A stretch of 64,000 nucleotides of DNA from Candidatus Omnitrophota bacterium (GCA_028707125.1 JAQTUX010000002.1:433872-497871), one strand, 5' to 3'. Positions 3,001 to 47,619 are shown, counted from the stretch's first letter. Numbers and translations are program-made. Notes: generated by a model not told the origin, from the sequence alone.

Positions 3001-6000
3001 TTGCCAGCGCCGGTATTGCCTGGGCATCGGAATAGAATGTCTTGTCTATCTCGTTACGCGTAATGCCGCCGAAGAACCTCTTCTCCTTTTTATCCGCGAA
3101 CAATCCCATTGCCGCGATCACCTGCCGGGCCTTTATCCCAAAGCTGACCCCTGTCTTATCCTCGTATGCCTCGTAGGCCTTTAACAAGGCGATGGCGCGG
3201 CCGTTCTCCTCAGTCGAGACACCGCCTATCAGGCGCGGCTCTATGAAATTGCCCGCCTTATCCATACGCAGGTCATAGCCCTGCTGCAAGAGCACCGGTT
3301 CCCGCGACATATCTACGCCGCCCAATTCCTCTGCCGTAAACATATCCTTTAGATCGCTCAGGCGCAGCGGCCGGCTCATAACGGCGTTGGTGATCTCCTG
3401 CGCCAAGCCAAGGAACGCGTTATCGCCGGTAGCAATGGTATAGGCGAGCATGCTCAGCGCCAGCGCCGAATCCACGCCTGTCCTGGTCCTGTATATCTCT
3501 ATCCTGCCTGTCTGGGCGTTGAAAGCCTCCGGTATACCTCTGAAATACTGTTTCCTGTCTGTCTTTACGTAATTATTCTCGTAGAACTTAAGATAGAAGG
3601 AAAGCACTGCCTTTGCCTCATCCTTCCTGTCTTTATTGAGCAGCCACATCACCAGCACTGCCTGGTCAAAGGTAAACGCCCTGTTTGCCTCAAGCGCAAA
3701 ACCCGGATGGGACACCCACAGCCCTGTCTTTTCCAGCTTGATGATACCGGCCTCGATCGCCTTTATGCTCTCCTCATATACCTCTCCGGTCTCTTTCCAT
3801 ATGGTTGCGGCACCCGCGTGTGACTGGGCGTTCTTGAATGAGACATCCAGCCACTCCTTGAGCGACTTCCAGTCATCCATTACCTCGCGATAGCGTGCCC
3901 TGAAATTCTTCTCAACCATACCGAAATCCATCGCTGTCAGGTCAGCCGCATTCTCAACAATAGCGTTTATGTCCGTATATACCCTGCCCACAAACGCCTC
4001 TTTCCGGGCAGCGTTAAGATCTTCTGACAGCTGCGCGGCGACAAACAGGTCAAGTATCTCTTTATATTTGGCGATAATGCCGTCCCTTCTCTGCGTGATC
4101 AAGCTTAATTCCTGCCTCTCCTGGGCGCCTATACCCTTATCGTTCTTCTTGTCATCAAGCGCCTTCTTGGCCTTTTCAAGCACGGATGGGGCAGGGAGCA
4201 GGGCCTTTAATTCTTTTACCTTGTTTTCAACGGCCTTCTCTATACCGTCTTTGCCCAGGCGCGCCTGAATGTCCTTGTAATTGTCTGACGGCTGCCACAA
4301 ATCATCCGGCCCTATAGCCCTGGCTGCCAGATCGCCTCTTGCCTGCAGTTCTTTCTTGGCATCTTCTACGTTCGCCTTCATCTCATCAATCTTCGATGCT
4401 TCAACCTGCAGGGGCTGGACCTTTTGTTTAGAAACCGCCTCTTTGGATGCCTTAACTAAATAATCCTCTGGATCAACTTCTCTGCCGTTGATGCCGCCTT
4501 TTCTGATCTCAAAATGTAAATGGGTCTGAGGTACATTATAGGCATTGCCTGTTCTGCCCACTGCCCCTAAGACGTCTGTCTGTGTAACCTGCTGTCCTTT
4601 CTTCACCTTAATTGAATCTAAATGAGCGTAAAGCGTATAGTTTTTGTCCTTGTGTTTAATTATCACTGTCTTGCCATAGTCCGTCTTTGAGCCGGCAAAG
4701 ACGACCTCTCCTTCTAACGCAGGATGCACGTCCGTGCCTTTTTCGGCCTCTATATCAATGCCTTGATGTTTATGGTTGTTCCTGCTGCTTACTCTATAAT
4801 CGCCGAATTCACTTACAATGTCTCCTGCAACCGGCCATGTGTAAATATTATTTTCTACTCTCCTGTCTCTCGCTATGGCGCTGAATACGATCAAATGAAG
4901 CGGTATCCTCCATGTCCCACCCGAAATCTGTTTTGTCCGCGGCGCCAGGGCATCATTCAACTCCTCTATTCTGGCGTTAATGCCGGTTGATATGCGCTTT
5001 AATACCGCCTGGTGCGTCTGCCTGCTCCACTCACCGGTCTGCTCAAGGCCCAGGCCCTTCTGCAGCGCCTTGACCTGAGAAGACAAGAGCTCGGTGTAAA
5101 TGGCGTTTGTCTCCTCATTCAGATATTCGCCGTATAACCTGATGCCGTCCAAGCCGTATTCCTTTTCTGAAGAAGAAACCCTCTTGTTCTCTAACCATTT
5201 ACCCACGATCTCCCGTATGCCGATCACCCTCTGGTCTTTCTTATTGCCGTCCACCTTGAATATATCTGAGTCATCGCCCTGCCATTTCAACTCTTCCAGC
5301 CCGGCCTTCTCTTGTTCCAGCACAAGCAGGTCGTTAAGTTTCTTCAGCTTATCCTCGGCCGCTTTTATGCCGGCATCGTTTTTCTGGGAATCGTATTCTA
5401 ATTTAAGTGAATTGATCTCAAGGCGGGCTTGGATCACCCTCTCTCTTAAGTCCTTAAATTCGATGCCGGCCCTATGCAGCAAGGCCTGCTCGGCAAACAG
5501 CCCCTTCCTCTCATCCATCAATGTATTGGCCCTGCCTTCATAAACGGCGGTCAACTCCTCCCGCAGGTTCTTCCAGTCATCTTCGTCAAGGTTCTCGGTC
5601 AGCTTATCGCGGCCGTGTATCCTGTAGAAGATATTAAGCGCCAGCACGGGGGATTTATCTACGGGATAACCCGCTTCCTTAAGTAAGCTCATCAATATAC
5701 TATCGCTGTCGGATGAGGAAGCGCCGTATTTACTGAAATCAATGGCCAGATCATCAAGCGTAATGGCCTCAAGTTCTGCCTTCTTAAGTCCTGCCTTAAT
5801 GCCCTTTATCTCCTCATCGATCGCCTTTATCAGGCCTGCCCTGTCCTGCGCTGACCTGGCGTCAACTTTTTGTCTATCCTCAATTTCCTCTTCAAGGCCG
5901 GCGATCTCTTTCCTGATTTCAAGCAGCCGCAGATTCTCTCCGGCGGCCCTGTTCTCTTTTACCTCTAACGCCTCTTTCTCTTTATTTAAGGCCTCTATCT

Positions 6001-9000
6001 TCTCTTTGTTGATGCCCTGTTTCAACTGCGCCATCTCTTCATCCAGCGCCTCAACCTGCTCGTCGTCTTTGTTCGCTGCCTTAATAAGGGCGTCCCTGTT
6101 TATCTCAAGCAGCCTGATGTCCTCTTCCGCGGTCCTGTATTCATTCGCCTCCAATGCTGCCTTTTCCGCGGCAACTTCCCTCTCTGCCTTTATCCTGCCT
6201 GACTCTGCCTCAATAGCACTCCACTTCTGGACTAACCTTCTGTACGCGCTGTCTTCGCTGCCCTGCGGATCATTCCAATATTTCCACAGGCCGTTGGCAA
6301 CCTCGCGCGCCGCTGAGCGCTCCTTGTAAGTAGGAAGCTCTGATATGGCCTCTTCCTGGCGGCCGCGCGCCTGCTTCTCTAACTCTGAATACCAATATTC
6401 GCCCTGCTGCCTCTCCTGCTCCGCCTTTTGCCTCTCGCTCAGGTCCTCTTTCCCGCCCAGGGTATAATGGATGAACTGCGGTATAGACGCTCCGGCTATG
6501 GTCTGCGGTAGAAGAACGTGCCCCAGGCCGATGGCGCCCGGAGGAACAATGAGTTCTCCGTCCTCGCTGAACTGTCCCGCGCCTTCCAGGCCGTTTGCCA
6601 ACGCCATTGCCTGCTTACCGCCGTAGTCCTTGAACAGAGGATGGTTGCCCATTGCCTGGCCGGCGTCAATGATCAATCCGATCTCAGCCGAGATCAACCA
6701 CATATGCCACAGGCCGATGTAGAAATCCTTGCCCGCCCGCACCAGAGCCATATAATATCCGTTACGATCCTTTGTCTCTATGGCGGACAGGTCGAATAAC
6801 TTCCTGATGCCCTTGTCCCCATAGAATGCCGCGGTGAGGATTATTAACGCGGGCGCGGCAACAACGGTCAAGGCCGCGGCTATGTCAAATCCGGCAAACA
6901 ACACACCCTTCCTGACGGCGCCGGCCGGTATTGACCCGCCTCTTTCTTCATATATCTTAAGGTAACTGTTACGCAGCTGCGGTATTTTCTTCAGGTTAAG
7001 GGAGATGACTATAATCGCCAGCCGGAACATCTCTTCCAGCGTATACTGCAAATGCAGCCCTGTCAGCAAGCGCTTCATCAGCATATTGCCGCCGACTATT
7101 GAAGGCGGATTGGCGATATTCCAGCCGAACAATGCCGCCAGGGGCCCGGCAACATAATCGCCGGCCAGGGCAAGCACAGCCCTGCCGATAATAAACCTGA
7201 CAATTCCGGAAGCAATAGGAAATGCCGCTTTAGCGGTTGTCCTGATGTTCTTCAGGGCATACACGGCCCGGCCTGCCAGGTCTGTGTTGGACACAGCGCC
7301 TACAGCCAGGTATTTGTCCTCCACGAATTCGGCAAACTGAATATTGGTCCAGATATAGTCAAAGAAGAAGTTCCAGAGCACCGATGCCAGATACGGCGAG
7401 ATAACGCCGAATATGGCGCCATAGAGGATGCCCGGAGCGCCTAAATAAGTCCCGCCTACGACAGCGCCGATCGCCGCCAGGGCCTTTATGTAAGCGCGGC
7501 GGTTAAGCACATCGTACGCGAAACTTAAGAAATCCTTCTTAAGCGGCCTATTATATTCTTTTGATTTTAAGAATCTCTGCCAGTCATCTTTGGTGGCGTT
7601 CATCAAGGCAATGATCAGGCAGCCGGAGAATAACAGTTTGGCGGGCTTGCCGCGGGAAAGGCGGCGGATGTCCTGCGCCAACTTGCCGATACCTAACAAT
7701 AACACTATGGAGGGGAACACGTAAGGAAATACACCGGCGATATAGGCGAGAACGGGAATGTTTGAATGAAGTATTGCTGCCGGAAGCGCTGCTTTTGTGG
7801 AGCCGGCGAACAACTGCAGGCCGTAAGAAAGGACGGAGATGCTTGTGATCAAACCAAATGACTCTTTGAGGAATTTGCGCGCCTGAGAAAGGTATCCCCT
7901 GTCAGGGCCCCTGATCCCGCCGTGCTCCACGCGCTGCTGCGTGACGCGCGCTGCCTGCGACAAGAACATTACAGAAGTATAAACGAAAGGAATGGATAAC
8001 AGAAATGCCGCGATACCCACGATTGTCAGAGGATTGGCAAAGGCGTAAAATGCCATTGCCGCCACCGGAATCAGGGCTACAACGCTCATAGCCATTGAAC
8101 CGCCGGCAGTAGCGCTGCCGGGAATGCGCTCAGAAGCGGAGCTGGAGGCCTGCTCCCGGCGCTCAGCATTTACAATACCCAGATCTTTGAATACATCGGC
8201 GGGGATAGTCGGATAGATTGCGCTGCCGCACAATATCCTGAGGAATCTTTCCTTATCCTCTGACGAGATATTCCCGGGAGCGCCTTTATAAAAATCAGGG
8301 CCCTTGATTATGGCGGAATGCAATATATCCTGAGCAGCATAGCACACAACAACATAGAAGCTCTTTACGGCTTTGTTCTGAGGAGACGCCGTATTACGTA
8401 TCATATCCCAGGACGCTTTGACGGCGCACTTCAACAAGGCCTTGCCCGGCTTACTGATCTTCTGCGTATCCTCTGCTTTAAGGTTTGCTTTGACCCAACC
8501 GTTCATAATAAACATATCTAAAAATTCGGAAAATGCCTGCACGGCAAGCGTTAAGTCATTGGGCATCACATAAATGCTGCCGCCTCGCAGCAGAAGCCAG
8601 ACGGCTGAGGCCTTCAACTCCTCGGGAAGACGGCCCTCCCTTATCTCTTGAGGAATCTGTTTCTTCTCTTTATATGCCTCCATATATTGATTGCGGAGAC
8701 GCGCGTACTCTGTGCCTATTGTGATCTCTCTATCGCCGCTCTTGACCCGCTTTGTTGACCTTATAAGACGCTCCTCAACCCAGCTGTAAAATTTGTCCTT
8801 ATCCCTGTTTTTATATAACAGATCCTTCTTTTCCCTTAGCCACGCATTCTCCCAGAGATACTGCTTTACCAGGTTATCTATGTAAGCCGGGCTTAAACCG
8901 GATGACAGTATCGCGGTATTTACCAATTCCCTGACCGTCTTTGAAATCCGAGGGCTCTTCTGCACCGCAATTTCAACGTCTAACATACCATTCAAAAATT

Positions 9001-12000
9001 CAGGAAGAATATGAAATTCGGAATCCGCCCTGTCTTTCTTCTCCCGCCTCAATCCCTCTATATAAACATTTACCACTTTGTCTATATAAAATACCTTTTC
9101 AATAATATTATAGAGATTTGTGGTCTTTAATTCCTTTGACTTGGCATGTATCGCCTGTTTTTGCGCCTCACCTTCAAGGCCGCTTAATTCACACCAGTCC
9201 TTGATCAAGCTGACAAGCACCTTAGATGTGATCCTCGCGACCAATTCCTGTTTATTAAGCGTCCTCTTAGCGGTAAGGAACCCGAATAATCCTCCGCCGT
9301 TGCCGTTCCCTGAAGAGCTTGCCTTTGGATTATTTTCCGCTAACGGCGGGGCAATGCTTATGTTAACCCTGGGCTGATCTTTGGTGCCGTTTTGTATATC
9401 TATATGGATCTGCCGCAGTACATTTAATATCGCGGTTGCCAGATCAACTGTCTGAGAAAACACATCCATGCCGTCCAGGTCCTCAACAATGACCTCTTCC
9501 GGCATATCCAGCTTCCCGGAGGGAGTCAGGAAGGAAAATTCCAATCTGCCTCCGTTGTTTACGGCGGCCCTGGGTACCACTATACCTGCCTTGCCGGACG
9601 CGAAAAGCTCGCGCGCGCCTATGTGATCAAATCCGGGGAACATCGCTTCTATTTGCGCCGCGTGCGATGCTAATAACGGATGCAGCGTTACGCACGAATG
9701 GTCTAAATGCGGATTGTCTCCTATGGTTACCAGTATGGCATCGTTAAAATAATGCTGCATCTGATGTGACTCATAAAGCGCGTCATTTACAAAGGCGAGC
9801 GAGGCCAATTTAGTAATGGTATATTTCTCCTTCTGGTCTATCCTGATCAACGCTTCTGATATGGGATTGCCTTCCCTCCACCTGTTCCTTACCCTTACAT
9901 ACCTGAAACACTCCACCCCGTTGTCTCCCGCGAACATCACACCCATAACGACGAAGTCAAAATCATCAACGGTAACATCAAGCTGCCCTAATGAATGGGC
10001 CAAACCGCTGAATCCCTGGCTTTGCCTGAATGCCTGCAGCAACTCGTCTGTCGTATTCTCTTCCCGGATATTGACTACCGCGGTCCTGTCCGTATTAAGG
10101 CCGACAAAGTGCCTGCCGTTCCTTAAGCTTATAATTAACTCTTTCAGATCTGCTACCTTGGGGCTGTCATTGCTGTCTACCAAAGTATTATCTAAGTCAA
10201 TAGAGAATATCACCGGGATCTGAATGCCCTCCAGGATGCTATTTATCTGTTCGCGCATATCCTTCTGTGATGCCATACCAAGACGCGTGAGAAGCCAATT
10301 AGTAACAGATGAGGAAGATGATTCTCCCTGTCTCTCCTTATAGGCCTGTGTGTATTCCTCCCTGTCCTTTTCGCGTAAGCCGACATACAAGGCAAGCAGG
10401 CCAACCCCGAAATCCGCCCCCTCTGCGTGGTCCATAAACCACTCTGAGATCAGCGTCAGCGCGCGCTCTGTTTCTAAGAGCGCCGGCCCCTGGTCATTCT
10501 TGCCTAAGGCCTGCAGCTTATTCCTGATGACGGCCTTAAGATAAGCCGGCAGGCCCAGCAACGCGCCTTTTTTGAACGACTCCGCGCCTATACTGTGGTC
10601 AACGCCGAATGTCTCAAAATCTATCCGCTCATTCTCCCCGTGGAATTTCATCTTAAATAACACCCAACGTATAAAGTTTACATATGATTCTATCGCGGGG
10701 CCGGTAATGCCGCTGTTAAGAGGCCTGCCGTTCTCTAAAGTAACTATTTCCACCGGGCTATTATCTAATAATTGCTCTAAAGAAGGCATTGCCCTGCGGA
10801 CCGCGTATCTAATGGGATATGTGGTGGTTAAAATACTGAAATGCCTTCCTGCCAGTTCTCCCTCCTGAATCTTCATTTCCTTCTTAAGGGCATAAGACAG
10901 CGCGATCTCGTCGCCTTCCGGCACGTTATGGCCTCTATCGCGAAGGATACCCTCCAGCTTCATTATTTTATTGCGTATTATATCCACTGCGGAAGACGCC
11001 ACGGTCACCCGGTTCCTGCCGTTTTCCTTTGAAGCATACAATGCCTCTTTGTCTGCCTTATACTCTAATGTTGCCCGGTCATTGCCATGTTCCGGAACAG
11101 CGGCAACTCCCAGGCTTATAGTAACGTTAAGGGCCTCGCCTTTATATTCTATCTTGAGGTTCTCAACCGCCGCCCTTATTCTCTCGGCAACTATTTCCGC
11201 GCCTTTGGCATCAGTTTCGGGCAGTATTACCGCCATCTCTTCGCCGCCGTAACGCGCTACGAAATCATTGGGACGTACGGCATTCTGAATAGCCGCGGCC
11301 ACCGCCTTCAGGACTTCATCCCCTGCCTTATGGCCGTGTGTATCATTAAATCTCTTGAAATGGTCTATATCGATCATTATGAGTCCAACAAAATAACCTA
11401 CGCCACGGTGAACGGCGCGTTTGAGCTGCTTATCCAGCTCGGAGTCATACGCCCTCCTATTATTCAGGCCTGTCAAGGCGTCTGTGGATACCAGCCTTTC
11501 CAAGCGTTTTATCTTGTTATTAAGCGCCAAGTAAGTCGCGGCTGCTCCCATGACTATGCCGACTGCCACACCAACCACTACCGCCGAAGAACTTGGCTTT
11601 TCCGGCACAGCCACGCCTGATACGGAGTTTACCTGATCAGGCGTGGTCTGTGTGGTTGCCGTCGATGCGGTAGACAGGGATATGGTTGTTGCGGCTGAGC
11701 TGGACCTTGCCGCGGATGGTGTCTGCGTCTGTGCCTCCGACCTCTTCCCAGGATTCTGCTGTGCCGTTACGGGCGTAGACGCGGCCCGCGCCATCGTCAA
11801 ACACAAGGAAGATGCGGGTCTTTCCGCTGGGTTCCTTTCCCGCTCCGAATACTGTCCTGTCCTTGCTGAAGATGACGAGGTGGTCAAACTGGAACTCTGC
11901 GAAGTTGATCCTGCACATTTTAATGCACCTCCTTCAATTAAATAGCGGGCGCGCTCGGTGGGGGTCAGGCCCCGGAGGTATCGGGCCACCAAAGCAACGC

Positions 12001-15000
12001 CCGCTATTATATTTGCCGCTGTAATCACGAGCCCAGCCACGGGTAGGGTGATCCCTGGCGGCGAACTTGTTCTTTCTAATAATTCAAAGGCATTCCTGGC
12101 CTTTTCTATCCTCTGCTCATCGGTCAATCCTTCTTCTTGCGCCGCGGTCAGATTTACCATTACCGGAGAGACCTCTTCAATGACATGCGGCCTGGTAAAG
12201 TAGGCGTCATCCTGCGCGCCCAGGTAATTTCTGCACCATGCCTGCGTGACCATAGTTATGCGAACAGCATTGATGTACGGAAAGCGCTTATACACGAAAT
12301 CAGTTGCCCTGTAAATATCTTCGGAATTAAGAGGACCGTAGCCCAAATGCGTTGTGCCTTTAAGGCTAGGGTGGGTATGCGCCATTTCCAGGAGGTCTAC
12401 GAACTGCACGCCTTGTTTCTCATACAATTCGGCCAACCACTGCATTATATAATAAACAGGGATCGCGTTTCTTCCGCCTTCAATGAATCTGGTATGTGTC
12501 GCGCCCCCATATACAGCCGTGATCATCGCGACTTCGGTATTCTGGGTATTCCTCCTCTTGTTGCACTCTTTATGAAGAGCCCACAAGCGGACTGCCCTGC
12601 CAACCTCTACCTCTGCCGGTATGATCCTTATAACTGAACGCTGATGAAGTATAAGCTCATCTACATCTGCTCTGCTTATAATAGCTTCTCCGTCAAACGT
12701 AGTGGATTTCCCGTCTTTTCTGATTAATATGGGGTCAAATTCCGGAACTTCGTTATGAGGGACTGTTTTGAACAGCGAACCTGCGTATACACGAATTCCA
12801 CCTGCTGTTTGCTCTGTATTCTGCTCAACAGCGACAGGTGGACTGGTTTCGTAGCGCTCTATTACCGCGGAACTCGCAACAAGAACAGCGTCAGCCGCCC
12901 TTTGTAACTGTTCAACCGGCGGCAGGATCGGCGCTATATAGGCCTTTCCGGTGGTCGCACTGCTGGAACCACTGTTTCCGTTACCGGAACCTGAACTTAC
13001 ACTCTGGGCGCCTTGGCCTCTGCCTGTATTTTCCGCAGGCAGGCCTGATTCATTCGCGTTCTTGCTGTCTGCTACTGCACTTCCTGCACCTCTACGATCA
13101 ATATGTTTGCCCGCTTCTGGCTCGACGACCTGGCTTTGGGCAAAGCCAGCCGCCCCGCTTATCCCGCCTGCTCCGGTAGCGCTTGAGCTTCCGCTCAACA
13201 TGGCGAACATCTGGTCAAGCGGAATACCCATACCCACCGTGGCTGGCATGGGAAGTATTATCGGGCTCTGTAAGATTGTCTGACTTGCGGCCGAACCGGC
13301 TGTATTAGAAGGACTGTTACCTATATTATTGCCGCCTGTGGGCGCCTGAGGCATACCCAACGGTTGCTGCGAGCTGGCAGGCGTGCCTGTTGGTCCATCC
13401 TTGGGCGCCTGTTGGCTATTCTTTCTGGCTTTATCCCTGCCCGCAGAGAAAAATGACTTAAGCATGTACTGAGAACGGACCAGTATATCTGTATTCCCCT
13501 CAACTGTATACCGATACGGATGATCACCTTCAAGCGCAACCAGGGCATTACCTTCCGGAATCTTAAATTCACCTACGATTTCTCCTCCCTTGTACCAATT
13601 CACACCCATATGGCCGACTATTTCCGCGGCTTCATTTGTTCTCAAAACACGGAATTCTCCGCTGTATACTGATGCCCCCTTAGGATATACATCAACGACC
13701 AACGTCTCATGGCCTGTTCCCGGAGTTACATACAGGTACCAATGCGCGTCATTATTTACCAACTCTACTTCCCATGCCGGGTCAAATATCTTTAATAACT
13801 GGCCGAATACAGTGTTGCGGGTCATGCAGGCAGCGCCATCCGGTAAATACATATTAATATGCCCGTATAATGATTCCACGACCTTCTCTAACGCGTCGAT
13901 CCTGGTTATCGCGGTAATATCTTTTTGTTTCTTCAGGTTACTCAACTCACTTTCCGCGATGGCAAGATCATCTTCGGCATGAATGTCTTTAAATTGACTT
14001 ATCGCCTTATCATATAAATCTATCGCGCCAATTATGTCCCCTCTTTCTGCCAACACCCTGGCCTTCTCAACTTTTGCTTCTGCCGTTGAGCTGGAAACAG
14101 GGCCTACGGGCGTAAGGGCGATGCTGCCGTCCTGCTGAAGCGCTATCCTGAAGAAATGCTTTAAATCAGCGGTGCTGGCAAGGGCCTCCGGCGGTTGAAG
14201 CGCGCCGTTAACTATCGCCCCTATTTTCAGCTCTTCTCTGAGTACCAGGGGCTGCCCCTTATAATCGTCTATCGGGGTGCCGACAGGTATTATTTGCACC
14301 GGCCTGATATTCCACGGTTGGATATCCATCTCGCCGTTATTATCCAGGGTTACCTTAAATTCATTGTCTTCTTTATCAGCGGCCATTACCTCTTTTGTCA
14401 CTGATTTTATGCTGCCGTCCTTGCCCTTCAATATATTGATCTCGCCCTGCAGGATAAGCGGATGCTCATCGTCGCTGCTGATATTCTCTCCCTGCTTGCG
14501 GGTTATCTTTAAAGGCATAAATACAGTATGGCCGTCTTTGCCTGTTTCGCTTACAATCCAGGGATCACCCTCATTATCTACAAGGTCTATGGAATCAACG
14601 CCTGTCTTTCTCTCAAAACCGTAAGGAAGATATCCTCCGGCAGCGGGCCTTAACACCTTGCCGTCGTCCAGTTTTATCTCTGCAAGTATTGTTGCCTTAT
14701 CATCGTCAAGGCACAACCAGCCGTTTATCGCCGCTGCCTGCTGCCTGGCCTTTTTCTCTATCTGCGGCTCGGTCAATTTATCCTTATTCTGCTTAGCGTC
14801 ATTAACGGCGTTCAGCGCCTCCCGCGCCATTTCAACGCTCACCACGCCCTTATTAGCCGCGATCTTATCCATCATTTCATCTATTGCGGCTATGCCTGTC
14901 CTGGCTGCCGCGGGAAGGCCTTTAACCGTCGCCGCGATGCCCAATTTCCCAAACCTGCGCATATTCTGCCACAATAAAGGATTGATCCTCAATATACCCG

Positions 15001-38346: not shown

Positions 38347-39243
38347 CTAAAATCCGAACGTCCCTCCCCGCATAAATTGCAACAATATCGGCCCGGCCAC
38401 CATGATCAAAACCATCGGCAGAATGCAAAACAACAAGGGAAACAGCAATTTGATCGGCGCCTTCAGGGCCATCTCTTCCCCGTTCTGAAAACGCCGTATG
38501 CGCATCTCTTCCGACTGTATCTTCAGCGCCTCTCCCATAGGAGAACCCATCCTGTCCGCCTGAAGCAGCGTCCTTGTGAAAGACGACATCTCTACCATGT
38601 TGACCCTGTAAGAAAGGTTCTTCAGCGCCTCCCTCCTTGTGCGGCCCACCTGCGTCTCTCTATACATCATCGCCAGCTCTTCAGTTAGAGGGCATTTCTT
38701 AAAATCCCTGATGACCCTGCCCACCGCGAGCATAAAATCAAGGCCGGCGCCGACGCACAGGTAGAGCAGGTCAATGACAAAAGGCAGGTCTCGTGATATG
38801 GACCTTTGCCTCTTTTGCACCCGGCTCCTTAACCAGAGGTCAGGAAGAATAAACCCGATCGCCAAGCCCGCCGCTATATACAGCGGCCGGTTAAAAAATA
38901 TTATGGAAACAACAATGCCTGCTAACGCGGTTGAGACAAACTTGAAGCTAAGGAACTCCAAAGGATTTAAAGGATATCCCGCCATAAGCAGTTTCCTCTC
39001 CAACCCCTTTAATTTAAGGCGCTTGCTTAACGGCCTGACAACAGGCAGGAACGCGTCAAGAAATTTGCGCAAAGGGTTCCTCTCCCTTTTTTCGGATTCA
39101 AGAGCGGCGATATCCAGGCTTTCCTGTTCATCCTCGGAAAGATACGCCTCTTCTCTTTTGGTAAAAGGAGACGACAGCTCAAAGGCGAGAAGGACTATCG
39201 CCGTAAAAATAAGGCAGTACGCGGATATCAATAATATGCCCAT
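38347..39243 (-). CDS. tadC: Tad pilus inner-membrane platform protein TadC (T2SS-F/GspF-like domain)
   Basis: 298-aa track ORF with 3+ TM segments and a GspF-like core. It lies directly downstream of tadB, and its stop sits 8 nt before the giant-ORF start. Confidence 0.8.
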   Translation of the reverse strand: MGILLISAYCLIFTAIVLLAFELSSPFTKREEAYLSEDEQESLDIAALESEKRERNPLRKFLDAFLPVVRPLSKRLKLKGLERKLLMAGYPLNPLEFLSFKFVSTALAGIVVSIIFFNRPLYIAAGLAIGFILPDLWLRSRVQKRQRSISRDLPFVIDLLYLCVGAGLDFMLAVGRVIRDFKKCPLTEELAMMYRETQVGRTRREALKNLSYRVNMVEMSSFTRTLLQADRMGSPMGEALKIQSEEMRIRRFQNGEEMALKAPIKLLFPLLFCILPMVLIMVAGPILLQFMRGGTFGF

Positions 39244-39244
39244 C

Positions 39245-40093
39245 TCACACCTCTACCTTGCTGAACTTCATAATTAAAAATATACCTATTATATAAAGCG
39301 CGGCGCCCCCGCCTAAAAGCATCTGCCCCATCTGGTCGTTAAGCATTACCTCAAAAAAGGCGTTGTTCATGGTATAGACAAAGAACCCGAAGGCGATCGG
39401 CAGAATACCCATGATCGTGCCTTGGAGCTTCCCCTGGATGCAGAGCGCGTTGACCTTGCCTATAAGCTTGTTCCTTTCCCTTATGGTAGTCACCAACTCA
39501 GAAAACGTGTCGGTAAGGTCTCCGCCGGATTCCCTGGCCACAAGTATCGCCGTATTGATCAGATCAAGCTCATCGATCGGCATCCTCTTCTTAAGATTGT
39601 TCAAGGACTGCTCAAGCGGCATACCCACGCGGTTCTCCCTCACCACCAGCCCGAACTCCTGAGATACGGGCGCGGGCATCTCTTCAACTAATGCCTCAAA
39701 TGCCTGAAGCAAGCTCAGGCCCGCCTTAAGGGAGCCCGAAAGGATCATCAAGGCGTCAACCAGCTGCTGGGAGAACATTTGCCTGCGTATCCTCTCCATC
39801 TGCTTTATAACCAAAGTAGGCACTATGAGCCCGATGAAACCCGCAGCAGCGGCAGCGAGTATATTACGGAAAACCAAATACGCCCCGAACGCCAGGACAA
39901 CGGGTATTAATACATCAAGGACCATGATCTTGTTAATGGGCAGGTTCAAAAACATCCTGTCAAGCTTAGGCGCGTATTGTTCCATGCGCCTCTGGCGCTG
40001 CCTTTCATACAGCTCTACTGCCAGCGGTATGCACTCATTAATAAGCAGCCCCACCGAACCAAAACTCAGGATAAATATGGCGAATTTGATCAT
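39245..40093 (-). CDS. tadB: Tad pilus inner-membrane platform protein TadB (T2SS-F-like)
   Basis: 282-aa track ORF with a GspF-like domain and TM segments at both ends. There is a 1-nt gap to tadC. Confidence 0.8.
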   Translation of the reverse strand: MIKFAIFILSFGSVGLLINECIPLAVELYERQRQRRMEQYAPKLDRMFLNLPINKIMVLDVLIPVVLAFGAYLVFRNILAAAAAGFIGLIVPTLVIKQMERIRRQMFSQQLVDALMILSGSLKAGLSLLQAFEALVEEMPAPVSQEFGLVVRENRVGMPLEQSLNNLKKRMPIDELDLINTAILVARESGGDLTDTFSELVTTIRERNKLIGKVNALCIQGKLQGTIMGILPIAFGFFVYTMNNAFFEVMLNDQMGQMLLGGGAALYIIGIFLIMKFSKVEV

Positions 40094-40452
40094 TCCTGCT
40101 CCTCTTGTCCGTCTTCCGGTTGTGTCGCGCTTACGTATTCTCCGTGCAACCTGTCGTAATCCTCAACCTCTGTAAATTTGTTGCTATGCATTAGTTCCGA
40201 AGATGCTTCATCCGGCCCGTCTACGTTTACAGCGTTGCCATATAACCCACTTAGAACTTCGCTGCTGATCGGTTCAGAGGCCCCAGGGTCGGTTGTCACT
40301 TCATACTGCCAGCCGAAACCGATCGCGTCTGCGGCAGTCCGCCACCTTCCCTGCATAGCGCGCTTAAGGTAGACCTGCATGGTCATGACCGCCGCGACCA
40401 TCACGATCACCAACACGCAATACTCAATCGCACTGATACCTTGGTTTTTCAT
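40090..40452 (-). CDS. Flp/TadE-type class III prepilin-like protein (MKNQG/ISAIEY…)
   Basis: Carries the G/XXXXEY prepilin-peptidase motif followed by a hydrophobic helix and 'MQVYLKRAMQGR', which is shared with the paralog array. Confidence 0.65.
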   Translation of the reverse strand: MKNQGISAIEYCVLVIVMVAAVMTMQVYLKRAMQGRWRTAADAIGFGWQYEVTTDPGASEPISSEVLSGLYGNAVNVDGPDEASSELMHSNKFTEVEDYDRLHGEYVSATQPEDGQEEQE

Positions 40453-43228
40453 AGTTCGCGTCCACCATTCTTGCCAGGTCGTTCGCCCGCCAGTAATGAT
40501 AGGCGTATGAGCGCGACCTTATGCCCTTGCCTAAAAGCCGCAGCGCCTCTATTTCGCTTAACCTGTTATCCGGGGTTATCCGCCCCAAGTCAACAGCGTC
40601 GCCGTATCTGGAATTCCAGAAACCTATGGCGTTCTTCGGCTCATCAAACCTCTGCACTTCAACCGATACCTTGCCTTCTTTATTCCTGAGATAGACGCAC
40701 CTCTTTAATCCGCCCCATTTCTTCTTCGCCTGCAGATACGGCACCTTGAACGGATACACGGTGACGTTTATAACGTGTATGCCCGCTTTGTCATCCCAGG
40801 CATACAGGGCGTTGGGAGTAAGATTCCATTTATCCTGCAACGCCTCTACCTCACCGTTGAACAACTCAATATCATCCCTGAACTGCTGGATCGCCTTTAT
40901 AAAAGCGGTCATACTTCCATCCTGCCCCTGCTGCAACCTTGAAGGCCTGTCGGATGCGGGGTCAACGTCTTTATCGTATATTTCTTCGTTGATCTCATCT
41001 ATTATTGCCTCTTTGATCACCTTGTCCGCGTCCCAGTTCCCATACCTGAAAATCCCATAGTAATTTTGATTTTGGATTGAATCAGGCAATGCATCCCTCA
41101 TCGCGTCCCTTATTCCTGTTAACTTCAACTCCCATGCCTCTAATGACTGCAGCCACCCTTTCTCAACAACCGGTGTCTCACCTTCAAGCAATTCGCCCTC
41201 TCCGGTGCACCAGTTATCAGGAACCCAGCTTATCTCGTCATACCAGTTGTCATAATTAATCTCTGCTGAGCTTTGGTTAGGGTGGCCGGCAAGCGGCTTA
41301 TATCTAGTTCCTATTTCGGGTTCAAGCCGTGCGATTTCACCTTCCGCCAGGCCTTCGGGAATATCAAGCAAATCATACAATTGGCTCTGCCACATTCCAA
41401 AAGTCGCCAGCAGGTCCTTATCGCTGATCGTCATCTGCCCCTGGACAGGCCGGTAATCCCTCTGGAGACGGCCATTAACATATTGATAACCCCAGAAATA
41501 CCTGTAGCCGTAGCCGGCCGGTATATATGCGCCGCCAAAGAATGACTGCATATAGTCCTCAAATGCCTCGGCACCCCATTTTAACAAATCAACCTGGTCA
41601 ACCTTATTGTATTCGCTGCCGCTGTCAGAGCGGTATTTTGCATCAAAATCTATCCAGGTCGCTGTCTCGTCCTCATCGATAAGCTGCGCTCGCAAAACAG
41701 ACAGGATTGCCGAAAGATCGCTGCCGAACACCGCCGACATCGCGCCCTGTTCCAGGTCTAAACCTATATTTAAACGCACTTCTGTCTGGCTTACCTGCTC
41801 AGCCCAACCGTTTTCTGTCAATTTTCTGGAAATGCTGTCCCACTCAAGCCCGGCCTGCTCAACTAGATCTCGTGTAACTATCCCCGCGTCGGGATAAAGT
41901 TCGCTGAAGGCGCGCTCTTCCGTCGCGTTACCGGGCACATAAAACGGAAGGGTTTCTCCCGTAAGAACCAGATTATTTGCCGGTAGAGTAATATTAAAGT
42001 CGTAGGAATGATAATAAGTATAGCTGCCTCTGGAGCTGCCCCACTGCCAGCTCCAGACAGGCGCGTTGATATCTCTTGCCAGCTCTTGCATATACCGCCA
42101 AATATCACTGCTGCTGACAGTAATTGTATCGGCGTGGTCCCTGAACAACACGCGCAATAATTCGTTAAGTTTTATATCCGTATCGTTAAATGTTTCTATC
42201 AAATCGCTTCTATAGATGCTGGAACTTATATTCTGATATGAATACTTGCCGCCGGACCTGTCATAACCATAGAATTCCAGGTGATCGCTTATGCGGAAAT
42301 TTCTTAACACAAATAATTTGGCAAGAAGACGTTTGATATTTGCTTCATCCGCCGCCTCTCCAGCAATATCAGGCCACTCCTCTTCATACAGGACCTGATA
42401 TTGCCCGTCTTCATCCCGCTCCAGTTCTATCCTGAAGGAATTCTGCATGAATTTCTGCTCAGCGTCCCAAAACGCCTTCATCTTAAGCTTAAATTGCGCG
42501 ATCTTGGCCTCTAAATCCTTATTATAGCCGTCCACGTTCTTCAGCCGCTCCACATACCATCTGGAAAACCGGCCGATCTTATCGCCTTTAATACCAAGGG
42601 GTTTCTCCCTGATATCGCGGCGGCGCTCTCTGCATACCGGCTCTTGGCCGGGATTAGGAGCGTCATAATAATAACAGCCCACCTCGCCGTCCTCATCCAG
42701 GTCAAACTCATCAGCCACCTTAACCGGGTCATCAACTATCTTGAACAGGGCGGTCTGTATCGCCCCTTCCCTGAATTTCATCTGCTCGGTCATCTTGGCA
42801 AACTGCCGGTTTACAGCCCGGACCATTGCCGGCTCGATCAGAATTGCCTGTGCCGCGACTCCTATGGTCGCTAAAACCGCTCCTACCTGGGCGCCGGTAA
42901 GCGCCGCGCCTGTTAAACCTAAAAAGCCGCCGAATCCAACAGCCATGAGAAAGGCCGCAGCCACTATTGAAAAGAAGAAGCCCCAGTTGAACTTGCACTT
43001 ATGGTCTCTGTCGCCTATAAATTTATGAGAAAGATAATGGGCAAAACTGCCCAGGTTATTGGCTAAATTAAATGACGCGGCGTCTGCCGCCTGCTCTACG
43101 GAAAGCTTCCTCTGTGAAAGGTGGCCTATATTGATCGCCACGGCAGCAAACAGTATCAGCGCCGCCAATAAAAGCGTTATCAGCGTGGCGATCTGGCCCA
43201 TCTTCTTTCTTTTGCCGCAGAGCATCAT
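40424..43228 (-). CDS. TadG-like large pilus-associated protein (N-terminal Tad/TadG membrane-anchor motif)
   Basis: 934 aa. The N-terminal TM segment is followed by 'HLSQRKLSVEQAADAASFNLANN', resembling the TadG N-terminal domain. The remainder is unassigned. Confidence 0.55.
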   Translation of the reverse strand: MMLCGKRKKMGQIATLITLLLAALILFAAVAINIGHLSQRKLSVEQAADAASFNLANNLGSFAHYLSHKFIGDRDHKCKFNWGFFFSIVAAAFLMAVGFGGFLGLTGAALTGAQVGAVLATIGVAAQAILIEPAMVRAVNRQFAKMTEQMKFREGAIQTALFKIVDDPVKVADEFDLDEDGEVGCYYYDAPNPGQEPVCRERRRDIREKPLGIKGDKIGRFSRWYVERLKNVDGYNKDLEAKIAQFKLKMKAFWDAEQKFMQNSFRIELERDEDGQYQVLYEEEWPDIAGEAADEANIKRLLAKLFVLRNFRISDHLEFYGYDRSGGKYSYQNISSSIYRSDLIETFNDTDIKLNELLRVLFRDHADTITVSSSDIWRYMQELARDINAPVWSWQWGSSRGSYTYYHSYDFNITLPANNLVLTGETLPFYVPGNATEERAFSELYPDAGIVTRDLVEQAGLEWDSISRKLTENGWAEQVSQTEVRLNIGLDLEQGAMSAVFGSDLSAILSVLRAQLIDEDETATWIDFDAKYRSDSGSEYNKVDQVDLLKWGAEAFEDYMQSFFGGAYIPAGYGYRYFWGYQYVNGRLQRDYRPVQGQMTISDKDLLATFGMWQSQLYDLLDIPEGLAEGEIARLEPEIGTRYKPLAGHPNQSSAEINYDNWYDEISWVPDNWCTGEGELLEGETPVVEKGWLQSLEAWELKLTGIRDAMRDALPDSIQNQNYYGIFRYGNWDADKVIKEAIIDEINEEIYDKDVDPASDRPSRLQQGQDGSMTAFIKAIQQFRDDIELFNGEVEALQDKWNLTPNALYAWDDKAGIHVINVTVYPFKVPYLQAKKKWGGLKRCVYLRNKEGKVSVEVQRFDEPKNAIGFWNSRYGDAVDLGRITPDNRLSEIEALRLLGKGIRSRSYAYHYWRANDLARMVDANYEKPRYQCD

Positions 43229-43256
43229 TTTATCTCACCTTCCATCTTTATGATCC

Positions 43257-43604
43257 TTAATCCCTGTGTAACGCGGGATTTTCCCGGTCAAAAACATAAA
43301 GCGGCTTTGCTGTATAAAATCCTGTTGACCAGGGGTATAATCTCTGGCGCCTTGTACCTCTCCCTAATTCTTCATCATCTCTTTTCTCGTTCTCTACTGT
43401 CGTCATGTTAAAAATCCTGCCCGACTGATAGTCGGTATGCCTGTATTTGAAATTATTGCTAAACCAGAGCAGGATATTGAACGTCCCCAAAAGCAGAACC
43501 ACAAAGGCGATAAAGGCAACCGTTGATTCTATGGTTACCTGCCCCGTACCTTTACCACGGACCTTCAACCTTATGCCCTGTTGCCCATCCCTTATCTTTA
43601 TCAT
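43257..43604 (-). CDS. TadE-like pseudopilin (…GKGTGQVTIESTVAFIAFVVLLLG…); start probably at internal Met ~43604
   Basis: Class III signal-peptide-like N-terminus. The track ORF 43257..43643 overlaps the upstream gene, so the likely true start is the internal Met. Confidence 0.45.
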   Translation of the reverse strand: MIKIRDGQQGIRLKVRGKGTGQVTIESTVAFIAFVVLLLGTFNILLWFSNNFKYRHTDYQSGRIFNMTTVENEKRDDEELGRGTRRQRLYPWSTGFYTAKPLYVFDRENPALHRD

Positions 43605-44859
43605 AACGTTTCTCCGTAAACACAAGTAATCCAAAACCCTCATTGCCCTCTATATTATCGTTGGCATTGTTTCTCGCCTCTCTCAACTTTAAGTCCAGAT
43701 TACTGGGGGTAACATTATTAGTTGCCCAAAGCACTTGAAAGAAAATCATCAAGTGGCTGAGGTACTCTGGATCGGCGATGACAGCCGCCTGATAATCGCT
43801 TACCAAAACAATAAATGCTTTAACGTTGGAAAAATCGCCTTCTCCGGTATTGGTTTCAGCTATATCTATGCTTGGATTCTCTGTAAATGTGTCCGGGGAT
43901 ATATTATGAAGCCCAAGGGGATAGATAAAATGTTCTTTCCCGTTTATCTTTACCAGGTTATTTACCAAGGCAAGCGTTTCATGTTTTAATATAAATGAAC
44001 CGCTGTTTATATTCCTTTGTATCCAATAAGAATTATATCTTTCCGGCTCATTTTTGGAATCTTGCCAGACCTCACCTTCCTGGCTGTCTATAACCCTTAT
44101 ATAATCAACCACCTCGCGGCTGCCCATGCCGCTTCCCTCTCTCCTGTTCTCTACGCTCAACACGCTTTCCTCTTCGCCGTCGCCGTCCAGGTCAAGGCTG
44201 TCGCCTTTAGAAATCTTGTCTACGGCAACATCTTCCCACTCCCAGCTTCTAAGGCGGTCGCCATTTTCAGCAACCCAACGCATCTGTCTGACATTTACGC
44301 GCGAATCCACGGCGTTGTCTTTATCCTCAAAGAACACCGGTTTACCGTCGGCGTTCTTTTTGGGGTCAATATCTTTTCTCTTCCTGGGCATAGCCGACAA
44401 AACAGTCCCTTCCGGCGACTCTAAATGTCCGTCCCTTACATATATCGTCCGGAACCCCGCGGTTGTAAAGGTGTATCTTTTATCGCCGAAATCATAAATT
44501 ACCCTGGGCAAGTCCTCTTGTTTGTCCCAGGTAATGTTGTAAAACAACTTCTGCGTCCAGACGGCAGAATTGAACTGCACAAAAGGCGTACGCTCCGCGT
44601 ATCCGCTCAAACCCAGGGGGTTGCCCGGGTCAGGAACCGGCAGCTGCGTGAATCTGGCGTAGGTTATGGTCCTCGCGTCATTCCGGGCATCGTATGCCTC
44701 TTTATACGACTGCCTGAATACCTGCATAGACAGGCCATGGTTATAGTTAAGCGTCGTCCCGTATTTAACAAAAAACCCTATCACCAGAAACAGCGCCGTG
44801 CCGAATAACGCCAGCTCTGTCAAGGCCTGCCCGGATTTTTTAATTACCGAAATACTCAT
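43552..44859 (-). CDS. Long (435 aa) TadE/TadF-like pseudopilin (…KSGQALTELALFGTALFLVIG…)
   Basis: N-terminal G-Q-x-x-x-E-(L/F) followed by a hydrophobic helix. It is unusually long for TadE/F. Confidence 0.55.
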   Translation of the reverse strand: MSISVIKKSGQALTELALFGTALFLVIGFFVKYGTTLNYNHGLSMQVFRQSYKEAYDARNDARTITYARFTQLPVPDPGNPLGLSGYAERTPFVQFNSAVWTQKLFYNITWDKQEDLPRVIYDFGDKRYTFTTAGFRTIYVRDGHLESPEGTVLSAMPRKRKDIDPKKNADGKPVFFEDKDNAVDSRVNVRQMRWVAENGDRLRSWEWEDVAVDKISKGDSLDLDGDGEEESVLSVENRREGSGMGSREVVDYIRVIDSQEGEVWQDSKNEPERYNSYWIQRNINSGSFILKHETLALVNNLVKINGKEHFIYPLGLHNISPDTFTENPSIDIAETNTGEGDFSNVKAFIVLVSDYQAAVIADPEYLSHLMIFFQVLWATNNVTPSNLDLKLREARNNANDNIEGNEGFGLLVFTEKRYDKDKGWATGHKVEGPW

Positions 44860-45178
44860 ATTTGGATTGCCTCACCTTCTCATCTCCTTTGCGCAATGTT
44901 ACGCTGCTAACCTGCTCTGTAGTGCTTCTATTGCGACCATCCGCCTGGTTCCGCGGATTAATAATACTTGATACAGACACCGAGCCGGTTTCCAGATACG
45001 TATACATACCGGAGTAAGTGTTCCCCGGAGAATACTGCTGGCCTATGTCGTCCGCGGCAAGCCGCATCCTGCCCTGGATCGCGCGCTTAACATAGGTCTG
45101 CATGGCGATCAAGGCGCCGACAATAACGATCACCAGCACGCATATCTCTAACGAGGACTGGCCTGATCTACGCATCAT
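44840..45178 (-). CDS. Flp/TadE-type prepilin-like paralog (…MMRRSGQSSLEICVLVIVIVGALIAMQTYVKRAIQGR…)
   Basis: Track ORF 44840..45217. The likely start is the internal Met. G/QSSLE + hydrophobic helix + conserved 'AMQTYVKRAIQGR'. C-terminal 'KYEYFGN'. Confidence 0.6.
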   Translation of the reverse strand: MMRRSGQSSLEICVLVIVIVGALIAMQTYVKRAIQGRMRLAADDIGQQYSPGNTYSGMYTYLETGSVSVSSIINPRNQADGRNRSTTEQVSSVTLRKGDEKVRQSKYEYFGN

Positions 45179-45188
45179 CTTTCCTTCC

Positions 45189-45650
45189 TTATTCAACCGG
45201 CTGAGTTGCCTCAGCATAAGATTTTGTCCACGTTACTTCTCCGCCTATCGGCTCTGCGCCATCCGGAAGATCGGAATGATCCGAAGGGCCAATCTCCAGC
45301 ACGGTAGCGAATTCCTCATTTACAGCCGGACTGTCAACGCCGTATTGCTCATCTTTTTCGTTGCCGGCCATGAATTCGGTATCTTTAGTGTTGCTTAAAC
45401 TATACGACTCTGCGGCCGATCTTGATATCTCACCCAGCATCAGGTCACGCTCAGGGACGTACTGGTCACGCTCAATATCAAACTCGGGGCCTAATTTTAA
45501 AATACTATTAGCCGAGTTAGCTATGCCGCCCTGGATCGCGCGCTTGACATAGGTCTGCATAGCCACAAGCGCTGCCCCCACAAGAGCGAATACGATAGCG
45601 TATTCGCTCAAGCTCTGGGCTTTAGTCCTCCTGATAGAACCTCCGGCCAT
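45189..45650 (-). CDS. Flp/TadE-type prepilin-like paralog (A/QSLSEYAIV variant)
   Basis: 153 aa with the same N-terminal architecture and an acidic C-terminal extension. Confidence 0.55.
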   Translation of the reverse strand: MAGGSIRRTKAQSLSEYAIVFALVGAALVAMQTYVKRAIQGGIANSANSILKLGPEFDIERDQYVPERDLMLGEISRSAAESYSLSNTKDTEFMAGNEKDEQYGVDSPAVNEEFATVLEIGPSDHSDLPDGAEPIGGEVTWTKSYAEATQPVE

Positions 45651-45692
45651 AGCTGAACACTCCCTGTGAAGTTAAAACTGCCATAAAACACT

Positions 45693-46169
45693 TTAATTGC
45701 TAACGGCCTGTATCCATCGATTATGACTATCAATGGTCACATTACTCGTTGGGCTCGAGGCCTCAGGTATCGTGTCTTCGTCTGAAACAAAACCACCGTA
45801 ATCCGTTGTTGCCGGCTCCGGCTCTTCGTCGCTATCCGGATCCTGTCCCCAGAACTCATGTTTTTGCTTGGCAACGATCTCCCATCCTTTACGGTTCTGC
45901 TGCTGCGTATCGATCTGTGAACCTGACCGTTCAAATTCTCCACCACTCAATTGCACCCAGTCCCTGCTAACTGTGTAAGAATCGGTCTGATGAGCGCTCT
46001 TGGTATAGCCCGGTGAATACTGCTCGCCCATATCATCGGAAGCGCTTCTCAGACGGCCCTGGTAGCCGCGCTTGATGAACGTCTGCATGGCTATGAGGGC
46101 GCCGATGATGACTACTATAAGTATGGCGAATTCCAACGTGGATTGGCCTTTGTTCTCTTTAATAAACAT
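45693..46169 (-). CDS. Flp/TadE-type prepilin-like paralog (MFIKENKG/QSTLEFAIL…)
   Basis: Track ORF 45693..46283. The likely start is the internal Met at ~46169 with an AAGGAGGTGA RBS. The N-terminal half is identical to the next paralog. Confidence 0.6.
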   Translation of the reverse strand: MFIKENKGQSTLEFAILIVVIIGALIAMQTFIKRGYQGRLRSASDDMGEQYSPGYTKSAHQTDSYTVSRDWVQLSGGEFERSGSQIDTQQQNRKGWEIVAKQKHEFWGQDPDSDEEPEPATTDYGGFVSDEDTIPEASSPTSNVTIDSHNRWIQAVSN

Positions 46170-46193
46170 TTCTTCTATCACCTCCTTACTATT
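46008..46193. repeat. 186-bp perfect direct repeat, copy 1 (pilin paralog 5' end + RBS)
   Basis: Identical to 46526-46710 by eye ('cccggtgaatactgctcgcccatatcatcggaagcgcttctcag…cctccttactatt'). Confidence 0.8.
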
Positions 46194-46686
46194 GAGGAAT
46201 TGGCGACGTCTCTGCAGTAGCCAAATTCGTATTGAATTCTGTTGAATATCTACCACTATGCACGGCTGCCTGATCTGCGGCACTCACGCCTTCTAACGCG
46301 TCGGGTGTCTCTCCGCCAGTAATCGTGTGTTTCCGACCTTCGTTTATCTCTTCCGGAACTTCACCCCAGAATTCAAAATTTGACTTTGCCACTGACTCCT
46401 TATTGATCCTGTCTTGATGCTGGTTCTTTATCTCGGAAATAGAAATTATTTTGTTATTAGCGTCGGCCTTTACCCTCTCCTCGTTATGCGCAAAACTTAT
46501 ATTATACTCATCGGATTGCGTGTATCCCGGTGAATACTGCTCGCCCATATCATCGGAAGCGCTTCTCAGACGGCCCTGGTAGCCGCGCTTGATGAACGTC
46601 TGCATGGCTATGAGGGCGCCGATGATGACTACTATAAGTATGGCGAATTCCAACGTGGATTGGCCTTTGTTCTCTTTAATAAACAT
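46189..46686 (-). CDS. Flp/TadE-type prepilin-like paralog (MFIKENKG/QSTLEFAIL…)
   Basis: Track ORF 46189..46716. Internal Met start with the same RBS. Its 5' 186 bp is a perfect copy of the downstream paralog. Confidence 0.6.
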   Translation of the reverse strand: MFIKENKGQSTLEFAILIVVIIGALIAMQTFIKRGYQGRLRSASDDMGEQYSPGYTQSDEYNISFAHNEERVKADANNKIISISEIKNQHQDRINKESVAKSNFEFWGEVPEEINEGRKHTITGGETPDALEGVSAADQAAVHSGRYSTEFNTNLATAETSPIPQ

Positions 46687-46710
46687 TTCTTCTATCACCT
46701 CCTTACTATT
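46526..46710. repeat. 186-bp perfect direct repeat, copy 2
   Basis: See copy 1. Confidence 0.8.
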
Positions 46711-47083: not shown

Positions 47084-47120
47084 TTATTTTCACCCCCTTT
47101 AAGCGAATGAATGACTCTGA

Positions 47121-47582: not shown

Positions 47583-47619
47583 TTATTTTCACCCCCTTTA
47601 AGCGAATGAATGACTCTGA

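Follow-up and report, generated by a model that had tools for sequence, protein, structure and literature searches.

The closest described counterparts of the gene analysed here are the giant proteins of the Omnitrophota. A 39,678-aa protein of Velamenicoccus was found to carry 42 transmembrane (TM) helices (PMC10066038; Seymour et al. 2023), and a 2026 preprint describes a single Omnitrophota giant protein with up to 331 (bioRxiv 10.64898/2026.06.07.730766). These giants combine “numerous transmembrane regions” with GGDEF and HAD_2 domains and an N-terminal C39 peptidase, and they neighbour type II secretion-like loci (West-Roberts et al. 2023, bioRxiv 10.1101/2023.11.21.568195). A divergent SecA_DEAD or SecA preprotein-binding domain is present in “most” giants of the Archaeovorin type. 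The giant proteins are seen as drivers of predation on other microbes. Their path through the membrane and the placement of their enzyme domains are an acknowledged open problem, because published topology predictions conflict. Here we analyse a giant gene in a 64,000-nt stretch from a Candidatus Omnitrophota bacterium (GCA_028707125.1 JAQTUX010000002.1:433872-497871), referred to as the window, and in particular positions 6540–10250, in which a first-pass annotation had noted an HAD-like motif and a polytopic membrane domain.

We confirm that a phosphatase-like domain and a membrane domain of ten helices are encoded in this stretch, and that the gene is a member of the described class of giant, multi-TM, multi-enzyme Omnitrophota proteins. 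The annotation had considered such a topology undescribed for giant genes, which is wrong because the published Omnitrophota giants have many TM helices, 42 to 331 in the reports cited above. Its premise of a soluble, rod-like giant adhesin does not fit this class of giant membrane proteins either. The published studies purposely excluded TM regions from structure prediction, and the membrane module is therefore uncharacterised in the published giants.

Two conserved modules in a giant reading frame

A stop-codon count over the window showed that frame 0 of the minus strand is free of stops from 38341 down to position 1, while the remaining frames hold 3–30 stops of each type per 2 kb. The giant open reading frame (ORF, 1–38338) starts at its first ATG at 38338, leaves the window at the left edge and has at least 12,779 visible residues; all of its features described below lie on the minus strand, residue n corresponding to the window high coordinate 38344 minus 3n. 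Positions 6540–10250 thus represent residues ~9363–10600. A table-11 ORF listing on the plus strand contained nothing above 300 aa in positions 1–38,000; the giant frame, being a minus-strand frame that is cut by the window edge, was unlisted. Pfam domains in the ORF were identified with E values of 1e-29 to 1e-48, but no Pfam family was found in aa 9301–10700, and blastp detected no internal duplication in the protein. The order of elements first described, a GGDEF domain followed by an HAD motif, a TM cluster, a coiled coil and an M23 peptidase, was recovered.

The motif VIFSIDLDNTL, read initially as a DxDxT HAD signature between the GGDEF domain and the coiled coil, occupies aa 9377–9387 (window 10181–10213). 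DxDxT[LIVM] occurs once in the giant protein against 0.47 expected per shuffled protein, which is not significant alone. We regard the motif as genuine because all four HAD motifs, and not motif I by itself, are conserved in homologs. When 1.84 billion representatives were searched exhaustively by HMMER with residues 9371–10570, 29 matches were obtained, eight of which span residues ~9372–9676 (E 1e-12 to 1e-26). Across nine aligned sequences motif I (D9382, D9384, T9386, L9387), motif III (K9511) and motif IV (D9542, within GDNPHLD) are invariant, and motif II (T9417) is T or S in all nine. G9414, H9548 and a DFDF motif are further invariant columns. The divergent module occupies 9362–10246 (aa ~9366–9660).

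The Pfam check proposed for the motif yielded no HAD profile above cut-off. S6PP reached 13.5 bits with the window sequence (cut-off 20.3; E 0.054) and was seen, likewise below threshold, in four of the nine members; Hydrolase_3, DUF2608, DUF705 and Acid_phosphat_B also appeared below threshold. With NCBIfam the best match of the homologs was HAD-SF-IIB (TIGR01484, E 0.0023), along with Cof-type and YcsE-related families. Most of these weak matches are to HAD families, and no other families recur across members; FilR1_middle, Cob_adeno_trans and others appear once each. A search of PDB sequences with the single sequence returned none, and the profile matched only two, the phosphomannomutase 7myv and the Cof-like 2pq0, both aligned over motifs I–II. 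In the reasonably confident AlphaFold2 (AF2) model (predicted local distance difference test, pLDDT, 76; predicted TM-score, pTM, 0.78), motifs I, II and IV each lie at the end of a strand, and ~90 residues are inserted between motifs II and III. When compared with the PDB by Foldseek, the model found HAD proteins (IMP-nucleotidase, PMM) at E 0.03–0.3 only.

The module resembles HAD subfamily IIB (Cof-type, S6PP and eukaryotic-type phosphomannomutase) in its motif I (DLDNTL, compared with DxDGTL), in motif II, a T followed by D/H-R (compared with TGR), in the insert at the position of the C2 cap, in the lysine of motif III and in motif IV (GDxxxLD, compared with GDxxND). It differs from that subfamily by the extra invariant motifs DFDF and DHS/GHS, and by its location in giant proteins or behind a signal-peptide-like N-terminus. 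We classify it from these sequence features as a divergent, apparently IIB-like family of the HAD superfamily that has kept its catalytic residues and whose fold has no significant match; it is probably catalytically competent. Relatives are found in large proteins of Omnitrophota and Elusimicrobiota and also in small proteins, one of them from Auribacterota (P0017, loci L003/L004, Candidatus Auribacterota). Another, P0008 (L001 1254–2579), adjoins a PfkB sugar kinase and bears the IMG name “cob(I)alamin adenosyltransferase”, which probably stems from a weak spurious Pfam match.

The second module, the membrane module, is a conserved region of ~550 aa at 6434–8095 (aa 10083–10636), recognised from hydropathy, homologs, alignment, AF2 and loop charge. 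A Kyte-Doolittle (KD) scan with a 19-residue window gave 16 peaks of at least 1.6 in the whole giant protein. Eleven of them, several overlapping and representing about six distinct helices, fall in aa 10083–10505 (window ~6.8–8.1 kb). Two overlapping peaks mark an N-terminal signal-like segment and two lie at aa 6380–6456; besides the membrane cluster there are six isolated TM peaks in the protein. Hydropathy and AF2 helices combined indicate about ten hydrophobic helices in aa 10083–10563 and a weak eleventh at 10598–10622. The polytopic domain of at least ten helices first proposed within the giant frame is thus borne out, conserved in homologs and far beyond chance. The helices are placed at 8033–8095 (TM1), 7961–8029 (TM2), 7799–7861 (TM3), 7685–7756 (TM4), 7439–7492 (TM5), 7361–7435 (TM6, with VLWNFFF), 7130–7219 (TM7), 6989–7042 (TM8), 6824–6907 (TM9, possibly re-entrant) and 6653–6718 (TM10), followed by a conserved tail at 6434–6652 (LEG...G..G...LGG).

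About 21 of the 29 HMMER matches span residues ~10130–10636, with E values down to 3e-44. All homologs of the membrane module are in very large proteins or contig-end fragments, and every homolog examined shows a matching cluster of hydrophobic peaks. Informative taxon labels are available for three: P0023 and P0027 are Omnitrophota, the latter having the same whole-genome shotgun prefix as an Omnitrophota metagenome-assembled genome among the loci of the secretion ATPase relatives described below, and P0002, on a 5.3-kb contig, was binned as a Candidatus Pacearchaeota archaeon. The alignment of 16 module sequences (A1) has 16 invariant columns, mostly in the C-terminal half. Conserved elements are VLWNFF at the end of TM6, P10375, F10383 and the invariant R10387 in TM7, P10497 in the centre of TM9, WHMWxIxAEIG in TM10 (WHMWLISAEIG in the window copy) with the invariant E10553, and the LEG...G....G tail that leads to a semi-conserved LGG. 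AF2 modelled the module as an all-helical bundle (pTM 0.64) with a helix break at the conserved proline of TM9.

Searches against described families gave no counterpart. Pfam had no match to the window copy up to E 10 and no consistent family match among the 16 module sequences up to E 1, and the module profile matched no PDB sequence. Word-index homology searches with the TM module and with the module alignment found no matches where the exhaustive HMMER search succeeded, and scanning genome and metagenome contigs with back-translated patterns of the TM module retrieved no relatives. The module is a real, conserved and unclassified membrane domain. What is new is modest: two domain families, the HAD-like one and the ten-helix membrane module, that are absent from Pfam and NCBIfam.

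Some relatives depart from the single-copy arrangement. P0009 (locus L086), from an Omnitrophota project, has two module copies, at residues 140–607 and 1520–2016, and P0009, P0018 and P0021 each have an Rce1-like CAAX intramembrane protease domain immediately ahead of a module copy.

The two modules are joined by a helix-rich linker at 8132–9274 (aa ~9690–10070), for which we found no Pfam match at E 10 and no counterpart among the 29 homologs. The same was observed for the spacer between the GGDEF and HAD-like domains (aa 9112–9365, window 10247–11008), with no Pfam match up to E 10 and no counterpart among the 29 relatives. Both stretches are apparently linkers that evolve fast or filler specific to the lineage.

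Topology and flanking domains

The loops of the membrane module alternate in their content of lysine and arginine (K+R). L2-3 (7), L4-5 (15), L6-7 (5–9), L8-9 (6–14) and L9-10 (5–7) are rich in these residues, while L3-4 (1), L5-6 (0), L7-8 (1–2) and the acidic stretch after TM10 (2) are poor. The same pattern is seen in the medians over 16 homologs. The 28-residue TM9 has an almost invariant proline at its centre. This helix is taken as re-entrant because L8-9 and L9-10 are both K/R-rich and the proline breaks the AF2 helix. The simplest consistent model would have the N-terminus inside and the C-terminus outside, with TM1–8 and TM10 spanning the membrane and TM9 re-entering from the cytoplasmic side. 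This orientation would place the GGDEF and HAD-like domains in the cytoplasm and the M23 domain outside.

The chemistry of the flanking domains agrees with this model, with a GTP-needing GGDEF domain upstream and an M23 domain that has to reach peptidoglycan downstream. Domains of cytoplasmic type precede the module in homologs as well, namely GGDEF in P0025 and HATPase_c in P0013. Near 11.6–12.0 kb, where two single TM helices were expected, they were located at 11984–12040 (aa 8768–8786, KD 2.30) and 11528–11584 (aa 8920–8938, KD 2.17), and the K/R-rich sequence directly after the second (NNKIKRLERL) points inward too. The loop between them (aa 8787–8919, window 11585–11983) is of low complexity and rich in Ser, Thr and Ala; it opens with four arginines, which does not suit a simple positive-inside reading of this hairpin.

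The GGDEF diguanylate cyclase domain (11009–11488, aa 8952–9111; PF00990, E 1.9e-48) has the signature GGEEM, with M in place of F, which the regular expression GG[DE]EF fails to detect. An RxxD I-site is present five residues upstream, as are the metal-binding aspartates, and the domain is likely an active cyclase. We dropped the reading as a degenerate receptor, GGEEM, the I-site and the metal-binding aspartates being intact.

Downstream of the module, an E/K/A/L-rich stretch at 5162–6433 (aa ~10637–11060), read from sequence and without a Pfam domain, is predicted to form a coiled-coil stalk. A PG_binding_1-like peptidoglycan-binding repeat follows at 5006–5125 (aa ~11073–11112; PF01471, E 5.5e-4, 20.5 bits, cut-off 23), and then the M23 peptidase at 4469–4771 (aa 11191–11291; PF01551, E 1.6e-29). 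Its zinc-binding and catalytic motifs HxxxD (HQGID, 11192) and HxH (HLH, 11274) are intact and the enzyme is likely active. In homologs the region downstream of the module holds an SLT domain (P0001, P0002, P0029), a GH24-like motif (P0001, P0003), a LysM-like motif (P0026) or an M28 motif (P0020). The recurrent placement of the module ahead of a cell-wall hydrolase is a further, modest novelty.

Proposed role of the membrane module and alternatives

We propose that the stretch is an internal segment of a giant membrane protein, composed of an HAD module, an unconserved linker and a membrane junction or anchor that presents the M23 enzyme and couples it to the cytoplasm, and we assign this reading a probability of roughly 60%. 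The HAD-type phospho-hydrolase would share the GGDEF domain's side of the membrane, presumably the cytoplasm. The chain would enter the membrane module from the cytoplasm and leave it outside, through nine spanning helices and one proline-kinked re-entrant hairpin, and the module would serve as a topological junction and anchor that returns the chain across the inner membrane. On the outer face, a coiled-coil stalk of ~400 residues would bear the peptidoglycan-binding repeat and the M23 endopeptidase, in place of which relatives would have an SLT or lysozyme-like domain. An inner-membrane anchor ahead of the M23 portion, one of the roles first suggested for the region, thus appears to be its best reading. 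A role beyond anchoring is suggested because a single helix would suffice for an anchor, yet the module has 16 invariant columns, the intramembrane residues R10387 and E10553 and a conserved external tail. Most plausibly, the module would couple the cytoplasmic cyclic di-GMP or phosphatase modules to the control of an external hydrolase, in the manner of FtsX and EnvC.

Several observations weigh against this proposal. The parity of membrane crossings hinges on TM9 being re-entrant or, alternatively, on the weak eleventh segment crossing as well; if TM9 spans and exactly one of TM10 and the eleventh segment does so after it, the M23 domain would be cytoplasmic. Counting TM segments from the N-terminal signal peptide with strong peaks only puts the GGDEF domain outside, and a cytoplasmic GGDEF domain needs the borderline segment at aa 289–307 to span. 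The AF2 model of the membrane module is only moderately confident (pLDDT 66.7). For the HAD-like module, no Pfam or NCBIfam HAD profile passes its curated cut-off with the window sequence or the homologs, and Foldseek of the model against the PDB gave nothing at E 1e-3 or better. The stand-alone or N-terminal HAD-like homologs P0007, P0008 and P0017 start with signal-peptide-like sequences, which suggests that the family can work outside the cytoplasm. Wall domains occur in only 5–6 of ~17 homologs with downstream sequence, the others having HEAT repeats, thioredoxin or Hint domains. The coupling role, finally, is pure inference.

It seems doubtful that the module is instead, as the term transporter-like in the first-pass annotation implied, mainly a transporter, flippase or channel for sugar phosphates, muropeptides or lipid-linked glycans, or an export conduit for the 2,000 and more residues downstream. 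About ten helices is typical for a transporter, AF2 predicts a compact bundle, the in-helix charges of TM7 and TM10 and the number of invariant columns exceed the needs of an anchor, and the domains that follow lack signal peptides of their own. On the other hand, there was no Pfam match among the 16 module members and no PDB sequence match, and the structure comparison intended to reveal a transporter, flippase or DUF returned no significant fold, the best Foldseek match in the PDB having E 0.18 and a TM-score of ~0.1. We saw no significant similarity to known transporter and flippase folds (MFS, MOP/MATE, ABC, SEDS and others), no internal structural repeat, and no internal duplication or inverted repeat by hhalign (probability 0.3%). 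In addition, a stand-alone module gene was never found among the matches, and no ATPase or binding-protein partner was seen alongside. The enzyme-core label of the first-pass annotation likewise found no support for the membrane module.

A role as a processing and release platform, on which the N-terminal C39 peptidase would cut at the terminal LGG and free the coiled coil with M23, or with SLT or lysozyme in relatives, is less probable still. The giant protein begins with the signal-like segment followed by Peptidase_C39 (~37560–38040, aa ~100–260; E 6.6e-9), in which Cys-like (PITCAADVLYEL) and His-like (QHFVLVTY) motifs can be read, and C39-mediated cleavage of giant proteins has been proposed before (West-Roberts et al., bioRxiv 10.1101/2023.11.21.568195). 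The motif ..IH..LGG(K/T).D that closes the module at 6434–6463 (aa ~10627–10636) could be a double-glycine processing site. The GG occurs in 10 of 16 homologs and hence is not invariant, and the site lacks the canonical spacing of a double-glycine leader (hydrophobic at –4 and –7, acidic at –8).

DxDxT[LIVM] alone is a chance-level motif, several helices of the cluster are only moderately hydrophobic (KD 1.1–1.4) and neither module reaches a curated database threshold, all of which would suit an incidental origin, with a soluble domain of helices and a motif arisen by chance, or an error in assembly or annotation. Such readings are effectively excluded by a single frame without a stop over 38 kb, eleven of the 16 strongest hydropathy peaks in ~420 aa, homologs of both modules from independent metagenomes (E 1e-20 to 1e-44), the invariance of all four HAD motifs and a positive-inside periodicity kept across 16 sequences.

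Beyond the anchor-and-junction proposal, a bolder version is that the module represents an unrecognised polytopic family, so far encountered chiefly in large Omnitrophota proteins, acting as an active junction, which would export, anchor and regulate wall-hydrolase “warheads” under cytoplasmic control, possibly with C39 release at LGG. We consider this unlikely, but if true the module would be an analogue of FtsEX-EnvC that is encoded in cis and serves predation. The module is a compact, conserved test case between a GTP-using GGDEF and a peptidoglycan-cleaving M23 domain and as such a good experimental handle on the topology of giant proteins. Settling its topology would calibrate calls for the whole class and show whether muralytic domains face outward.

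Genomic context and comparison with known systems

Directly ahead of the giant gene, a cluster resembling a Tad/Flp-type pilus or type II secretion system lies upstream on the same minus strand (window 38347–56127). It comprises a PPIase (55207–56127), RcpC/CpaB (54308–55201), a secretin with a C-terminal TonB_C domain (52701–54311), a fusion of a ParA/MinD-like protein with a T2SSE ATPase (50532–52691) and two T2SSF proteins (38347–40093), all on the minus strand. The two large ORFs at 40424–43228 and 43552–44859 have no Pfam match. Also within the cluster, a 532-aa minus-strand ORF at 48467–50065 matches HTH_Tnp_Tc3_2 and HTH_32, both below cut-off, in a local dip of GC content (0.444), and may be a mobile-element insertion. 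Over the right end of the window (56000–64000) the GC content drops from ~0.52 to 0.38–0.45; this part codes for a TPR protein, a GT2 glycosyltransferase, a spermine-synthase-like protein of 783 aa and an NHL-repeat beta-propeller protein.

Relatives of the T2SSE ATPase are 58–65% identical; roughly three in four of the loci retrieved carry the label Candidatus Omnitrophota or Omnitrophica. Most of the remaining ones are third-party annotation (TPA) bins labelled uncultured Planctomycetales or Planctomycetia. The 80 Omnitrophota loci around these relatives end short of any homologous giant-gene N-terminus.

With the Archaeovorin-type giants the gene has in common an Omnitrophota setting, a length of over 12,000 aa in one ORF, a signal-like N-terminus followed by C39, a Tad or type II secretion-like cluster just upstream, and many TM helices interleaved with enzyme domains (GGDEF, HAD) and wall-degrading domains. 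SecA_DEAD or SecA preprotein-binding, HEAT, GT5 and dockerin domains were not found in its residues 1–12,780 (SecA at E 0.01 or better), a difference that applies to the visible part only, the C-terminus lying beyond the window. The muralytic domain differs, being M23 with PG_binding_1 here, whereas SLT but not M23 is mentioned for the published Omnitrophota giants.

Outside this class, tape-measure and tail-lysin proteins of phages, such as T5 Pb2, combine a coiled coil and TM segments with an M23 or SLT domain and breach the wall of the target cell. The likeness is that of a long helical region with membrane segments and a muralytic domain. It does not extend to sequence or structure: a tblastn search of 50,697 phage genomes gave no match, and Foldseek of the module model against the viral structures of BFVD gave nothing significant (best E 0.14, TM-score ~0.1). 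A phage origin was rejected on the tblastn result.

The other comparison is with FtsEX-EnvC and FtsEX-PcsB. FtsX is a permease with four TM helices and an extracytoplasmic domain, and FtsE is its ATPase partner; the M23 domain of EnvC is without catalytic residues. No FtsX match by Pfam was obtained for the window module (up to E 10) or the 16 module sequences (up to E 1), and no FtsE-like ATPase was seen. The module is not a member of the FtsX family, and only the arrangement of coiled coil and M23 is common to both. As a purely functional analogy, both systems would join a polytopic membrane part to a long coiled coil that bears an M23/LytM or other hydrolase outside and receive regulatory input from the cytoplasmic side. 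In contrast to FtsEX-EnvC, a single polypeptide here contains everything, the membrane is met by about ten helices instead of four, and the M23 domain, unlike that of EnvC, keeps its catalytic residues.

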